Notes: generated by a model from the sequence alone, not told the origin. A stretch of DNA of 64,000 nucleotides from a virus (IMGVR_UViG_3300036770_005084:1-64000); one strand, 5' to 3'. Positions 3,270 to 59,154 are shown, counted from the first letter of the stretch. Translations and numbers: made by a program.

Positions 3270-4505
3270 ATGCTGACTCTTCTTCCTTATCAACAACGTG
3301 CTCTTAAGGCAGTTCAAAATGCTATCAGGGGTAGTGTTTATATTCCCACTGGTGGTGGCAAAACTATTGTGATGATGGAAGATGCACGTCAACGGATTCT
3401 AAATGCACTAGAACCGATGACGTTTCTTGTTGTTGCTCCTCGTATTCTGCTTGCAAATCAACTCTGTTCAGAGTTCGAAGAATATCTCAAAGACCAGAAT
3501 GTTGCTTATCTGCACGTTCACAGTGGAGAAACTCATCATCAATCCTCTACACGTCCATCAGTCATTGCAGAATACAATGACACTGCAATCGGAAGTGGTA
3601 AGCATCAGTTTATCTTCACCACATACAATTCGATAGGTCGTGTGAATGAGGCAGATATTAACATTGATGTTGTGTATTTCGATGAAGCACATCACTGTGT
3701 GAAACCATCTAACTTTGTGGGTATTGCTCATACTTCAGCAGTTGCAGATAATGCTTATTTCTTCACTGCAACTCCGAAGTTTAATAACAGCAAGGAGTCA
3801 ATGAATAATACTGATGTGTATGGTAATAACATCATCAGTATTCCTGCAAAAGAACTCATTGAAGCAGGTAGTATCATTCCTCCCAAAGTTGTTCCTTATG
3901 AAGCACAAACCATTCGCACTAAAGAAAATGCACCTTTTGTAGATGCAGAGAACATTGTAGGTATTCTGTCAGAGATTTCTGATTGTGATGCTCCTAAAGT
4001 TCTTGTTGCTGCTCCTAGCACCAAAGTAATCTGGGCAATGTTTACTGAGAGTGATTTGCTGCAACAACTCAATGATATGGGTTATACGATTATGCACATC
4101 ACTTCAAAGCACGGTGCTTATATTGACAAACAGAAAGTCTCCCGTGAAGTATTCTTCCAGAAGATGAGTGAGTTTGGTGCTGATGCAGACAAGAAGTTCA
4201 TTGTATTTCATTATAGCATCCTGTCTGAAGGAATGAATGTTCATGGTCTGACTCATTGCATTATGCTTCGCAATCTTCCTCTGATTGAAATGGCACAGAC
4301 TGTTGGACGTGTTATCCGTATGCACCGTGATGATCGACAAGCAATCGCAGAGGGTAAAGTAAAAGCAGGTGAGTTTGCTTTCTATAAGAAACCCTTTGGC
4401 ACTATCACTATTCCTGTCAACAACAACTATGGTGATAAGATTGCTCGTCAACTTCAAACTGTTGTGGACACTATCTTTGTGAAGGGTGAGGTTCTTTCTG
4501 CCTAG
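3270..4505 (+). CDS. SF2 (DEAH / ResIII-like) helicase
   Basis: Q motif LLPYQQ, Walker A PTGGGKT, DEAHH, TAT, SEGMNV, QTVGRVIR. Confidence 0.9.
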   Translation: MLTLLPYQQRALKAVQNAIRGSVYIPTGGGKTIVMMEDARQRILNALEPMTFLVVAPRILLANQLCSEFEEYLKDQNVAYLHVHSGETHHQSSTRPSVIAEYNDTAIGSGKHQFIFTTYNSIGRVNEADINIDVVYFDEAHHCVKPSNFVGIAHTSAVADNAYFFTATPKFNNSKESMNNTDVYGNNIISIPAKELIEAGSIIPPKVVPYEAQTIRTKENAPFVDAENIVGILSEISDCDAPKVLVAAPSTKVIWAMFTESDLLQQLNDMGYTIMHITSKHGAYIDKQKVSREVFFQKMSEFGADADKKFIVFHYSILSEGMNVHGLTHCIMLRNLPLIEMAQTVGRVIRMHRDDRQAIAEGKVKAGEFAFYKKPFGTITIPVNNNYGDKIARQLQTVVDTIFVKGEVLSA

Positions 4506-8779: not shown

Positions 8780-8941
8780 ATGCTGATTAAAACTGTTTTC
8801 GACGTTCATACTCATCAACCTGTGTATGCTATTTGTAATGCACAACATCAATGTGGTATGATTACGACTAACATTCTCAATGCTATTAAAGCAGCACAAT
8901 GTAAAGACTTCAATCAAGTTCAAACTTTAATCAATTCCTGA
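8780..8941 (+). CDS. Hypothetical protein (53 aa, MLIKTVFDV...)
   Basis: Hand-translated. Confidence 0.6.
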   Translation: MLIKTVFDVHTHQPVYAICNAQHQCGMITTNILNAIKAAQCKDFNQVQTLINS

Positions 8942-9024
8942 TGAAACTCAAAACTAAAATCAATCTATTGTCTAAAGCAATTAACGGTAAAGAACTACTC
9001 ATTATTCTGAATTCAATCAAATGA
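8941..9024 (+). CDS. 27-aa peptide MKLKTKINLLSKAINGKELLIILNSIK
   Basis: Coupled at both ends (TGATG, ATGA); weak resemblance to the N-terminus of ORF 6998. Confidence 0.5.
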   Translation: MKLKTKINLLSKAINGKELLIILNSIK

Positions 9025-9230
9025 CAAACAAAGTGTTTCAAATTGAATTGTGTAAAGAGGATGCACAAAGAATACTTGATGCACTTGAATTACTCCAATG
9101 TCAGACTAAACAACAGATTGATGATTGTAAGAGTGAAGAACAACAAACCATTGCCTGGTTAGAATGGTCTTATGTAAGTGAATTACATTATGATTTGGAT
9201 TGTAAGTTTAGATTAGAGACCTGGAATTGA
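9021..9230 (+). CDS. Hypothetical protein
   Basis: ORF track. Confidence 0.65.
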   Translation: MTNKVFQIELCKEDAQRILDALELLQCQTKQQIDDCKSEEQQTIAWLEWSYVSELHYDLDCKFRLETWN

Positions 9231-9234
9231 ATAG

Positions 9235-9256
9235 TTTTCCACAAGGTTGCGGAAAA
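9235..9256. repeat. Inverted pair of DnaA-like boxes forming a hairpin
   Basis: TTTTCCACA at 9235-9243 and TGCGGAAAA at 9248-9256. Confidence 0.7.
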
Positions 9257-9437
9257 TTGTTTTGATTTCATGACTTAGTAAAATGTTAATAATTATTATG
9301 ATGTGAGATATATGTCGTTTATAATGATACCCCTATATCGTCCATTTCAGGGTGTTTATATTGATGGTATTGTACGGTATTGTTTGATATCTGTGATTGT
9401 TCTTTTAATGTCTCTAGTTCTCGTGATCTTGGCCCAC

Positions 9438-9481
9438 AGTTTATCACAAACTCTGAGATCTGTCAAGTGTCACTGTGCCAG
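9438..9481 (-). promoter_or_regulatory. Leftward sigma70 promoter with a palindrome half-site
   Basis: Minus strand TTGACA (9466-9461), 17 bp, TG-a-TAAACT (-10 at 9443-9438); CTGGCACA half-site at 9481-9474. Confidence 0.7.
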
Positions 9482-9484
9482 TAG

Positions 9485-9539
9485 TTTTCCACAGGTTTTT
9501 CCACAATTTCCACAGGTTTTTCCACAACCCTGTGGAAAA
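9485..9539. repeat. Cluster of five TTTTCCACA-type (DnaA-box-like) motifs
   Basis: Boxes at 9485, 9497, 9506 (ATTTCCACA), 9518 and inverted at 9531-9539; includes a 21-bp tandem duplication 9486-9506/9507-9527. Confidence 0.85.
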
Positions 9540-9748
9540 CTGTAAATAATTCGATGTTTATTTTGACCCCCCTATATCGTCCATTTCAGGGTTATGAAAT
9601 ACAACTGCACTTCGTGTGTCGTTATCAATCACCTGAAAGGTGTCTAGAATGACCTGTAATCGTCTTTGTTCGTGTAACAGGTAGTCTGAGACCTACGTTA
9701 TATTTTCGTGCTCTCCTCGTGGTTTTTAATGCCCTGGGTATTGCTGGG

Positions 9749-9777
9749 TTGACAGAATAGGGCACTTGATGTACAAT
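9749..9777 (+). promoter_or_regulatory. Rightward sigma70 promoter
   Basis: TTGACA-17 bp-TACAAT. Confidence 0.75.
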
Positions 9778-10054
9778 TAGAATACAGTACGAGTTACTGT
9801 ATGTCACTATGGTCACAGTTCGTGTTATTATCTTCGTGTCCTGACAGTTATCAATTCGTGCCATTATAATTGTTATTAGTAATACAAACTGACAGTGTAT
9901 TCGTTATACTTTGACAGTTTGTGATAATTTATAGGTATATTTTCGTGTTCGTGGAGCACAGTTATATCGGGGGTTGTTTAATTATAATACCGGGTAATGC
10001 GGTTATAAGGGGGGGGGGGTTTTATAATTTTCGAAAGTCCTAACCTACAAAACT

Positions 10055-10246
10055 TTGAAAACGAGAAAGTTATTTCAAATGCTAAAAAAAATTTTTTGGA
10101 GTAAAAAAAATCCTGTGAGGTTTTTGTATAATCATGTGTATGGGACAGAAACGAGTCCTTGGGATGAGATTCATTATATTGGGATTGTATTGGGAGAGAC
10201 AGTGAAGATTATTGGGAGTCACTATATAAAAAAATTTCGGATATAA
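10055..10246 (+). CDS. Hypothetical protein (start uncertain)
   Basis: ORF track; TTG start, and the 5' part is A-tract rich. Confidence 0.45.
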   Translation: MKTRKLFQMLKKIFWSKKNPVRFLYNHVYGTETSPWDEIHYIGIVLGETVKIIGSHYIKKFRI

Positions 10247-10249
10247 AAA

Positions 10250-10411
10250 ATGGTATATAAGTTAATTGCAAGGGAACGAGTATTTTGTGAGGGTAGTTTA
10301 GATGAGTGTCAAAAGACTCTCACAGAGATAACTCAGATGATAAGTGCAGGATTAACGACTGATTTTCAGGTCGAAGAATTTTTAATCCTCAACTTGACTG
10401 GGAATAAATAA
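10250..10411 (+). CDS. Hypothetical protein (53 aa, MVYKLIARERVFCEG...)
   Basis: Hand-translated. Confidence 0.6.
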   Translation: MVYKLIARERVFCEGSLDECQKTLTEITQMISAGLTTDFQVEEFLILNLTGNK

Positions 10412-10461
10412 TCGAGTATCATGAAGTGGTACGTATACGTATTTGTTGTTGAATTAATTTT

Positions 10462-11220
10462 ATGGCCAAGAAAGGATTTACAGTTAAGAATACCGTAGAG
10501 AAAGAACCTGATCAGTTATTTGATATTGATGAATGTAAGGAACGTATTAGGGGCAAGACGATTGTATTTTGTCTACCAGGTAGGGGAGTTTCATATCGAT
10601 TCTTAAAATCATTTGTGCAGTTATGTTTTGATCTTGTACAATCTGGTGCTGCGATTCAGATTTCACAAGATTATAGTTCAATGGTAAACTTTGCTCGATG
10701 CAAATGTTTAGGTGCGAATGTACTAAGGGGACCAGATCAATTACCTTGGGATGGTAAACTCAAGTATGATTATCAACTATGGATTGATAGTGATATTGTT
10801 TTTAATACTGAAGCATTTTGGGCATTGTTTGCAATGGATAAGGACATTGCATGTGGATGGTATGCTACTGAGGATGGAAGAACAACATCTGTAGCACATT
10901 GGTTAGATGAGGATGATTTCAAGAGTAATGGTGGAGTGATGAATCATGAGATGGTAGATACCATTACAAATCGTAAGAAACCATTTACTGTAGATTATAC
11001 GGGATTTGGGTGGACTATGATTAAGAATGGAGTATTTGAGCATCCAGAGATGAAGTATCCATGGTTTGCTCCGCAGATGCAAGTCTTTGAATCTGGTGAA
11101 GTACAGGACATGTGTGGAGAAGATGTATCATTCTGTCTCGATGCTACACGTAAGTGTGGATTTGAAATCTGGTGTCATCCTCAAATTCGTGTCGGACATG
11201 AAAAGACAAGAATCATCTGA
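10462..11220 (+). CDS. GT-A fold (family 2-like) glycosyltransferase, conserved in cyanomyoviruses
   Basis: LWIDSDIVF DxD motif, TGFGW, GEDVSFC, VGHEK. Confidence 0.75.
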   Translation: MAKKGFTVKNTVEKEPDQLFDIDECKERIRGKTIVFCLPGRGVSYRFLKSFVQLCFDLVQSGAAIQISQDYSSMVNFARCKCLGANVLRGPDQLPWDGKLKYDYQLWIDSDIVFNTEAFWALFAMDKDIACGWYATEDGRTTSVAHWLDEDDFKSNGGVMNHEMVDTITNRKKPFTVDYTGFGWTMIKNGVFEHPEMKYPWFAPQMQVFESGEVQDMCGEDVSFCLDATRKCGFEIWCHPQIRVGHEKTRII

Positions 11221-53008: not shown

Positions 53009-53038
53009 ATATTAATTATCTTCAAACCTAACAGAGTG

Positions 53039-53068
53039 ATTATAGTCATATTATAGGTTGCATGTCAA
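53039..53068 (-). promoter_or_regulatory. Antisense sigma70 promoter
   Basis: Minus strand TTGACA-18 bp-TATAAT. Confidence 0.55.
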
Positions 53069-58209: not shown

Positions 58210-59154
58210 ATGACAAGTGAATTTCTTTTTGTGGAAAAATATCGTCCGAAAGTAATTGACGATTGTATTCTTCCGGATGAAACTAAAAAAATATTTAAGG
58301 AGTTTGTTGCTAAAGGAGAAATTCCAAATCTTCTTTTATCAGGACCTCCAGGGATTGGTAAAACTACAATTGCAAAAGCACTATGCAATGAACTAGGAGC
58401 AGATTTTTATGTCATCAACGGATCCGACGAAGGACGTTTCTTGGATACTGTACGGAACCAAGCAAAAAACTTTGCTTCGACCGTCTCACTTACGGGATCT
58501 TCTAAACACAAAGTCATCATCATCGATGAGGCAGATAACACAGGGAACGACGTACAACTCCTATTGCGGGCAAATATTGAGACATTTTATAGCAACTGCC
58601 GATTCATCTTTACCTGTAACTATAAAAACAAAATCATCGAACCTCTTCACTCCCGATGTGCAGTCATTGACTTCACTCTCAGAGGAAAAGAGAAAGTACA
58701 ACTTGCAGGGAATTTCTTTCAGAGGTTACGATTTATCCTTGATCAGGAAAAGATTGAGTATGATGAAAAAGTCGTTGCGGAACTCGTATCCAAACATTTT
58801 CCCGATTTTCGACGTGTTCTAAATGAATGCCAAAAATATTCTTCAAGTGGAAAGATTGACTCTGGAATTTTATCCTCATTAGTAGATATAAACGTCAGTA
58901 GTCTAATTAAAGATATGAAGGATAAGAAGTTCAATGATGTTAGAAAATGGGTTGTATCAAATTTAGATAATGATCCAACGACATTACTTAGAAAAATTTA
59001 CGATGCTGGATATACTTCCTTAAAACCAGAATCGATTCCTTCGGCAGTATTGATTATTGGAAAATATCAATATCAATCTGCATTTGTTGCTGATCAAGAA
59101 ATTAATCTCTTGGCAGCATTGACAGAAATTATGTGTGAGTGTGAATTTAAATGA
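58210..59154 (+). CDS. gp44: Clamp loader large subunit gp44
   Basis: VEKYRP, GPPGIGKTT, DEAD, SRC, PDFRR. Confidence 0.97.
   Translation: MTSEFLFVEKYRPKVIDDCILPDETKKIFKEFVAKGEIPNLLLSGPPGIGKTTIAKALCNELGADFYVINGSDEGRFLDTVRNQAKNFASTVSLTGSSKHKVIIIDEADNTGNDVQLLLRANIETFYSNCRFIFTCNYKNKIIEPLHSRCAVIDFTLRGKEKVQLAGNFFQRLRFILDQEKIEYDEKVVAELVSKHFPDFRRVLNECQKYSSSGKIDSGILSSLVDINVSSLIKDMKDKKFNDVRKWVVSNLDNDPTTLLRKIYDAGYTSLKPESIPSAVLIIGKYQYQSAFVADQEINLLAALTEIMCECEFK
58409..58822 (+). CDS. Candidate overprinted gene (137 aa) in the +1 frame of gp44
   Basis: AGGAG at 58395-58399, 9 nt before the ATG; the host-frame GC3 rise begins at the ORF start. Confidence 0.5.
   Translation: MSSTDPTKDVSWILYGTKQKTLLRPSHLRDLLNTKSSSSMRQITQGTTYNSYCGQILRHFIATADSSLPVTIKTKSSNLFTPDVQSLTSLSEEKRKYNLQGISFRGYDLSLIRKRLSMMKKSLRNSYPNIFPIFDVF

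Follow-up and report, generated by a model that had tools for sequence, protein, structure and literature searches.

T4-like cyanophages, which rank with the most abundant viruses in oceans and lakes, work with the same replisome as T4, and the site and mode of their replication start are unmapped; we know of no mapped replication origin in any cyanomyovirus. The textbook model of T4 replication has no place for a host initiator. The T4 origins oriF (uvsY) and oriG (gene 34) combine a promoter with an AT-rich unwinding element and use an R-loop primer; active T4 origins sit at sites of transcriptional divergence, and replication later switches to a recombination-dependent mode (PMC3016281). 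Host DnaA boxes are known from the origins or control regions of phages and plasmids, including P1, F, RK2, and lambda (PMC4980987, PMC3985674), and in lambda, DnaA protects boxes downstream of pO and stimulates pR-dependent origin activation (PMC3985674). No paper describing DnaA boxes in T4-like phages or cyanophages was found in the literature searched, to which many subscription journals do not belong. In cyanobacteria, the species-specific DnaA box is TTTTCCACA, a form of the consensus TTWTNCACA, and oriC usually adjoins dnaN (PMC4674748). The basal unwinding system of oriC, as defined in PMC8287927, consists of a DnaA box, then at least three NAN DnaA-trios within 0 to 16 bp, and an adjacent AT-rich region.

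The locus compared with these systems here lies in the first 64 kb (64,000 nucleotides; the window) of a 155,231-bp IMG/VR viral contig, IMGVR_UViG_3300036770_005084 (32.6% G+C; estimated to be 76% complete). The phage is a T4-like cyanomyovirus encoding a gp6-type baseplate wedge protein, a T4-type large terminase (∼81% identical to those of Synechococcus phages S-SM2 and Bellamy), a helicase, and a gp59 helicase loader, and psbA is present in the contig (genome positions 92577 to 93470). Because the phage supplies its own helicase and loader, DnaA would not be needed for DnaB loading. No DnaA DNA-binding domain (Bac_DnaA_C) was found in the phage. The psbA product was closest (96 to 97%) to sequences in genome bins of freshwater and brackish picocyanobacteria, which points to a picocyanobacterium of the Synechococcus/Cyanobium type as the probable host. 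Protein identities of 94 to 97% linked psbA to picocyanobacterial bins from the Caspian, lakes, and estuaries (loci L201 to L205 and L236), and near-identical DNA was seen in runs labeled as subsurface, crustacean, marine, and freshwater metagenomes; the phage probably belongs to non-marine or estuarine picocyanobacteria. All sizeable open reading frames (ORFs) of the window are carried on the plus strand. The GC skew was monotonic along the contig because all genes run one way, and it was uninformative for an origin. The cumulative AT-skew reached its minimum at 10031; this was not counted as evidence because part of the genome is missing from the contig and the gene class changes at the same point.

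A preliminary description of this DNA had noted five boxes in 55 bp, four of them direct with a 21-bp period, together with an inverted pair at 9235 to 9256. Exact copies of TTTTCCACA were located at 9235, 9485, 9497, and 9518 on the plus strand and at 9531 on the minus strand. The only further exact copy in the window is at 58230, and five of the eight copies in the whole 155,231-bp contig fall within 305 bp (9235 to 9539). Dinucleotide shuffles of the window (n = 100) gave a mean of 1.52 exact boxes and none reached the observed 6, which bears out an enrichment of the kind that the description had proposed to test. This enrichment was confined to the cyanobacterial form of the box; the loose consensus TTWTNCACA, named alongside it in the description, was found 11 times in the window against 12.4 expected and is not enriched.

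The upstream pair, IR1 (9235 to 9256), begins 5 bp past the stop codon of a 69-amino-acid (aa) ORF and combines an exact TTTTCCACA on the plus strand with TTTTCCGCA on the minus strand (9248 to 9256), head to head across a 4-bp spacer. The pair is present as described, but its second arm matches at only 8 of 9 positions. The main array (9485 to 9539) holds direct boxes starting at 9485, 9497, 9507, and 9518 and an inverted box at 9531 to 9539; the array is real, although the direct box at 9507 (ATTTCCACA, plus strand) carries one mismatch (8/9). Successive direct boxes start at steps of 12, 10, and 11 bp, each close to one helical turn, and the 21-bp period attributed to them belongs instead to a perfect tandem duplication, in which 9486 to 9506 is repeated as 9507 to 9527, with two boxes per unit. 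Among strain variants in other metagenomes, no change was listed within the boxes, and metagenome contigs matching the box region indicated that the array is common to many co-occurring phages.

The array lies in a gap (∼9231 to 10054), and no other long stretch of the window lacks a plausible gene, as had been proposed. Under a crude threshold (no plus-strand ORF of at least 45 aa over at least 250 bp), 9546 to 10054 was the sole gap in the first 64 kb; an 80-aa ORF (9303 to 9545) covers the array, and because its reading frame was not conserved in relatives, the real gap was extended to ∼9231. A coding reading of this ORF was rejected, since relatives do not share an open frame over the array. 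Small ORFs that follow the 37-nt repeat described below (17 aa here, 13 aa in the related locus L124) were likewise set aside, as their peptides were not conserved. No tRNAs were found in the gap, and Rfam returned only a chance miRNA hit (E value, 0.53). No initiator-like gene was recognized beside the cassette by Pfam or PHROG hits in the neighboring ORFs, a search that a novel initiator could escape; these small ORFs are mostly without known function. BLASTN with the interval 8800 to 10500 identified no match in cultured phages, and the array alone found relatives: a 68-bp array query matched 134 phage records, of which 94 were cyanophages, nearly all in unannotated DNA.

The order of the cassette was read from the window and six relatives side by side and tabulated for eleven. 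In gene direction, the end of the 69-aa ORF is followed by IR1, a leftward promoter (P_L), the main array, short repeated words, a rightward promoter (P_R), and a leader. Small genes and a late-type ATAAATA motif come next, before a gene for a 252-aa protein, and the cassette sits at the border between small early genes and the late baseplate module.

P_L (9405 to 9466, minus strand) is a σ70-type promoter with a −35 hexamer, TTGACA, that is the reverse complement of 9461 to 9466, a 17-nt spacer, and a −10 hexamer, TAAACT, that is the reverse complement of 9438 to 9443. Its initial transcribed region (GGCCAAGATCAC...) is conserved, extends to ∼9405, and is unique in the genome, and its direction opposes that of all genes. 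All 11 relatives carried TTGACA-17-TAnAnT with the same start region; the adjacent leftward promoter of the preliminary description is therefore both present and conserved. The main array starts 18 bp upstream of the P_L −35, and in relatives the nearest box lies 37 to 39 or 48 to 50 nt from it, distances that differ by about one to two helical turns in what is a small sample of related loci. A nearest-neighbor stability scan placed the most easily melted segment of the gap at 9272 to 9330, in the path of the P_L transcript, 100 to 160 nt downstream of the promoter and 230 bp from the main array. This AT-rich segment ranked at the 98.7th to 98.9th percentile of the genome, never above the 99th, and is not exceptional.

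The P_L transcript keeps only its first ∼30 nt and the IR1 palindrome among relatives, has no conserved ORF, and is C/A-rich, a composition poor for R-loops. A structured RNA was considered and rejected, as RNAalifold on eight loci gave no conserved fold beyond the box palindrome and essentially no covariation. This pattern fits a function of transcription itself or of DNA sites better than a structured small RNA. Elsewhere in the genome, consensus σ70 promoters at 53068 (−), 79605 (+), and 154536 (−), two of them antisense, have in common an initial element of ∼23 nt, CACTCTGTYAGGTTTGAAGATAA, that differs from the P_L start region; the first lies in the window (∼53010 to 53068), and together they may represent a small family of promoter-proximal RNAs.

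Two plus-strand copies of a 37-nt direct repeat (89% identity) were identified, copy A (core, CCCCTATATCGTCCATTTCAGGGT) at 9317 to 9353 and copy B directly after the array at 9556 to 9592. A related element follows the array in L124, and an exact search of viral contigs with the 20-nt core gave no match. The word TATATCG occurs 3 times in the gap and 15 times in the genome, with a C-run before it in both 37-nt repeats and a G-run after it at 9969 (window 9567 to 9580 versus 9962 to 9975); if both were transcribed, the C-run and G-run could pair across 400 nt.

To the right of the array, strand-specific short repeats extend over 9611 to 9953 on the plus strand (TTCGTG, eight copies; TTCGTT, one; TGACAG, four). 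Eight of the 31 plus-strand copies of TTCGTG in the genome fall within this interval, a 78-fold enrichment, and its minus strand has none. TTCGTG and TGACAG belong to a class of 5- to 7-nt words and stand at irregular distances of 6 to 114 nt. The TTCGT word is common to the window and L124; other relatives carry CAGTG words instead. Rightward transcription could start from a σ70-type promoter, P_R1 (9749 to 9777; TTGACA-17-TACAAT), or from two promoter-like sites at 9841 to 9870 (CTGACA-18-TATAAT) and 9911 to 9941 (TTGACA-19-TATATT), all on the plus strand. The last of these was taken, by presumed homology, as the positional counterpart of the P_R found to the right of the array in relatives (TTGACA-17-TATAGT), because a CAG-TAT-GGGGGTT segment follows in both. 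Boxes lie 3 to 210 nt from the rightward promoters. Every relative has divergent consensus promoters on either side of the array, and such a pair is notable because TTGACA-type promoters are rare: 155 kb holds 18 loose matches, 5 of which lie on the minus strand.

The rightward promoters lead into a G-rich untranslated leader (9958 to 10054, plus strand) with G5 at 9969 to 9973, GGTAATGCG at 9993 to 10001, G11 at 10009 to 10019, and CCTAACCTACA at 10039 to 10049. In relatives, the first ∼45 nt past P_R are G/T-rich and C-poor, with G4 to G6 runs, and CCCTAACCTACA is also found in P-SSM7 and in distant relatives without boxes. GGTAATGCG and CCCTAACCTACA(A/G)A are each single copy in the genome (window 9993 to 10049) and are conserved far past the box-bearing lineage, where they head the small-gene cassette before the baseplate genes; they were also located in L121 (P-SSM7; ∼3955 to 3975), L140, and L145, and in distant relatives a GC-rich hairpin precedes them in place of the box cassette. 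Two A/T palindromes of the A8-T6 type (10082 to 10111 and 10222 to 10251), each leading into a short G/C block and an A-run, are kept in all relatives read, the second ending at the ATG of a conserved 53-aa gene (10250 to 10411). They may serve as a translational or promoter signal, or else as an unwinding element.

Whole-record scans identified one tight cluster of boxes per genome in the cultured phages S-PM2 (two direct boxes and one inverted), Syn1 (three direct boxes with a 12-bp period), P-SSM7 (a direct pair 21 bp apart and a head-to-head pair 600 bp upstream), Syn9 (a head-to-head pair), and S-SM2 (a direct pair 21 bp apart, with boxes only on the transcribed side of P_L). The Prochlorococcus phages P-SSM2, P-SSM4, and P-HM2 had no cluster, their scattered single copies being at control level. 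In the S-PM2 record (L119; NC_006820.1, 19177 to 19333), tRNA-Leu and tRNA-Asn are annotated over the boxes, and ARAGORN found no tRNA in the 8-kb S-PM2 locus. Hypothetical ORFs of 34 to 52 aa are drawn over the arrays of Syn9 (gp86; L293), S-SM2 (S-SM2_086; L294), and Syn1 (Syn1_073; L120). Public annotations in this way mask the arrays as tiny hypothetical ORFs or misplaced tRNA features.

Uncultured relatives were found through the downstream gene for the 252-aa protein, which gave 53 loci with at least 1.2 kb of upstream sequence. At least two exact boxes were present in 10 of the 53, at 0.7 to 2.2 kb upstream of this gene, and all 10 were among the closest relatives of the flanking gene (84 to 87% identity); more distant relatives had no boxes within 3.5 kb of it. 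Every locus with P_L (11/11) had four to eight exact boxes at the same place. At IR1, 8 of the 11 keep an exact head-to-head pair, the second box starting 12 to 24 bp after the first; L128, with two direct boxes, and L124, with none, are exceptions. The main array of most relatives consists of one plus-strand box, a 78- to 79-bp spacer with CAGTG words, and then two to five minus-strand boxes; the window and L124 carry a compact set that includes a palindrome with a 4-bp spacer. Of 117 viral contigs chosen solely for two boxes close together, 42 were T4-like cyanophages by protein matches to the phage contig, and in 31 of these 42 the boxes stood beside baseplate genes; the array is therefore commonly placed between the last of the small early ORFs and the baseplate module.

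At one related locus, L131 (IMGVR_UViG_3300042321_002091), a GIY-YIG-like gene occupies the array site and the IR1 boxes have decayed to TTTTCAACA and TGGGGAAAA, while P_L (TTGACT-17-TACAAT) and P_R persist. The ORF of ∼100 aa at this site (L131:700-1500), with a GIY-YIG-like start (…GEVVYVGKS…), resembles an inserted homing endonuclease that serves as a natural knockout of the array. Conservation in other cyanomyoviruses, a point raised by the preliminary description, held for 11 relatives and 94 cultured cyanophage records but not for L131, P-SSM2, P-SSM4, and P-HM2. The array is dispensable, being replaced in L131 and missing as a cluster from these three phages.

The number, order, and orientation of boxes change fast among relatives, and the spacings are quantized in helical steps. 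Same-orientation spacings peaked at 12 and 21 to 22 bp, and head-to-head spacings at 13 and 23 and then at 56 and 78 to 79 bp; the sample was partly ascertained with gaps of 3 to 14 bp, and the distribution inside that range was far from flat. For 340 distinct boxes from low-GC viral loci, information stood at 2 bits inside the 9-mer and fell to no more than 0.42 bit in the flanks, the flank values alone being informative as the boxes were selected as exact 9-mers. Because information falls sharply at both edges of the 9-mer, the conserved unit has the length of a DnaA box. Weak flank preferences were seen for A at −2, G at −1, and G at +9 (each ∼0.55). Higher-GC viral contigs carry similar arrays that mix TTATCCACA with TTTTCCACA. 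The claim that these are DnaA boxes of the cyanobacterial form was upheld, as they match the published definition (PMC4674748) and boxes of the same type lie upstream of dnaN in picocyanobacterial genomes. The thrC-dnaN spacers of two such genomes (Synechococcus type) contain one exact and three to four one-mismatch boxes in ∼170 bp, and that of a third contains a single 8/9 box only. With an invariant 9-mer and variable number, order, orientation, and flanks, the array would be a protein site, neither an RNA nor a reading frame. Host DnaA would be the economical reading of the boxes, and it is likely that host DnaA binds the array.

The description had also offered an oriC mimic as one explanation. 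A DnaA-trio scan, scoring all four strand and orientation readings of the trio, found best runs of 1 to 4 beside the window boxes, none of them conserved in relatives; at least three NAN trios occur at 45% of random genome positions, which leaves no signal above background at the boxes. The basal unwinding system of oriC in the sense of PMC8287927 was not recognizable in the cassette. The array is thus not an oriC copy, for it has no DnaA-trio signal above background, its AT-rich segment is unremarkable, and only the boxes resemble the host origin.

Conserved, single copy, gene free, and furnished with an orphan antisense promoter, rightward promoters with a G-rich leader, oriented short repeats, and phased boxes, the cassette is the best candidate for an origin of the T4 kind. 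We tentatively favor a reading of the array as a docking module for host DnaA on the phage's candidate primary replication origin, giving it a probability somewhat below even, and an origin function of the cassette is rated similarly, as a serious possibility that falls short of an even chance. Under this proposal, transcripts from strong early-type promoters would open the duplex and prime DNA synthesis in the style of T4, with P_L directed leftward, opposite to the genes, and P_R, with its G-rich, R-loop-prone leader, directed rightward; the R-loop step at the cassette is suggested by analogy. DnaA would oligomerize on the helically phased boxes between and beside the promoters and, as an accessory, could help to open the DNA or set the frequency of promoter firing. 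Phage initiation would thereby be tied to the state of the host initiator.

The same layout could serve transcription alone, with host DnaA activating or repressing P_L and P_R, much as it acts at its own and other promoters, and the cassette being no origin, a possible but rather unlikely arrangement in which the phage would sense the replication and energy state of its host. Boxes placed in helical steps, 18 to 50 nt upstream of the P_L −35, and within 3 to 210 nt of the rightward promoters would suit such control, as would IR1, which lies past the P_L start so that a protein bound there could obstruct elongation, and the confinement of the S-SM2 boxes to the transcribed side of P_L. The array also behaves as an add-on, the promoter cassette persisting without it in L131, and lambda offers a precedent in its DnaA boxes downstream of pO and pR-dependent origin activation (PMC3985674). 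However, five to eight perfect phased boxes exceed the normal need of a promoter and resemble oligomer-forming origin arrays, and P_L is antisense, serves no gene, and yields no conserved ORF or fold, so that regulation would have a clear target only if the transcript itself acted in replication. A variant of the origin reading in which firing depends on DnaA, and the array serves as both a sensor of host replication and a counter of genome copies, is unlikely. Bound DnaA would switch on the origin transcripts or open the origin early in infection; as phage genomes multiplied, a fixed DnaA pool would thin out over the arrays, and the falling occupancy could shift replication from the origin-dependent to the recombination-dependent mode.

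That multiplying phage genomes soak up DnaA in the manner of datA and stop initiation on the host chromosome is improbable. The phage arrays do hold more perfect boxes (five exact here and up to eight in relatives) than the host regions upstream of dnaN (one exact and three to four imperfect), and copy number would be expected to multiply the effect. A sink needs no fixed place, yet the boxes hold their position between conserved promoters and are helically phased, and this fixed position argues against a pure sink; several successful cyanomyoviruses do without the cluster, and T4-like phages already degrade host DNA. There is likewise little probability that some other reader, whether an early protein of the phage or a different host factor, binds the array and that the match of its 9-mer to the DnaA box is coincidence or mimicry. 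The weak flank preferences at −2, −1, and +9 would be consistent with such a reader, the lineage-specific repeats (TTCGTG versus CAGTG) suggest further binding proteins, and most neighboring small ORFs have no known function. Against it, conservation covers precisely the 9 bp of the host box, information dropping sharply at both edges; higher-GC viral arrays mix TTATCCACA and TTTTCCACA as expected for DnaA; and the phage encodes no DnaA-like DNA-binding domain. A nonfunctional array, whether a tandem repeat of recent origin or a piece of the 80-aa ORF at 9303 to 9545, is very improbable: the perfect 21-bp duplication does show recent slippage and the ORF does span the array, but the exact word is kept across genera and habitats while its surroundings turn over, and the lack of a common open frame over the array in relatives adds to the comparative data that contradict this explanation.

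Whether through the replication start or through early transcription, the cassette probably links the phage to the host initiator. If DnaA acts at the array, phage replication would be wired to a signal of host growth and replication, which would bear on the control of phage yield by light and nutrients. A conserved, single-copy array of perfect boxes beside early promoters provides a precise locus in the cultured phages S-PM2, Syn9, S-SM2, Syn1, and P-SSM7.

Among the described systems, the T4 origins share with this locus the phage type, the replisome genes including the gp59 loader, a strong promoter reading into gene-free AT-rich DNA, and local transcriptional divergence, here at the border of early and late genes. 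Short repeats lie nearby, as at oriE, although the 5- to 7-nt words are unevenly spaced, unlike the evenly spaced 12-nt iterons of oriE, and the candidate unwinding element is not outstanding. T4 uses MotA-dependent middle promoters and no host initiator, whereas this locus has σ70 consensus promoters and DnaA boxes. E. coli datA is similar in being a cluster of high-affinity DnaA boxes outside the chromosomal origin. It works with IHF and promotes ATP hydrolysis on DnaA; such features are not readable here, and a fixed promoter context is unexpected for a sink.

The iteron replicons P1, F, RK2, and pSC101 likewise unite DnaA boxes, short repeats, and an AT-rich segment in compact non-coding DNA, and the orientation and phasing of their sites matter (PMC4980987). 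They differ in having a Rep initiator gene, for which no counterpart was recognizable beside the cassette, and iterons of 17 to 22 bp, in place of which the sole long repeat here is the 37-nt element in two copies. Lambda, which is not T4-like, has its own initiator O, an iteron origin, and few, imperfect DnaA sites; the likeness is that host DnaA sites adjoin phage promoters whose transcription acts on replication initiation. Cyanobacterial oriC differs in its dnaN or dnaA neighbor, and the likeness to it ends at the boxes, with no DnaA-trio signal above chance in the phage. It does share with the phage array the identical TTTTCCACA word, clustered and in mixed orientation (PMC4674748), and compared with the host regions read upstream of dnaN, the phage boxes match the word better and are packed more closely.
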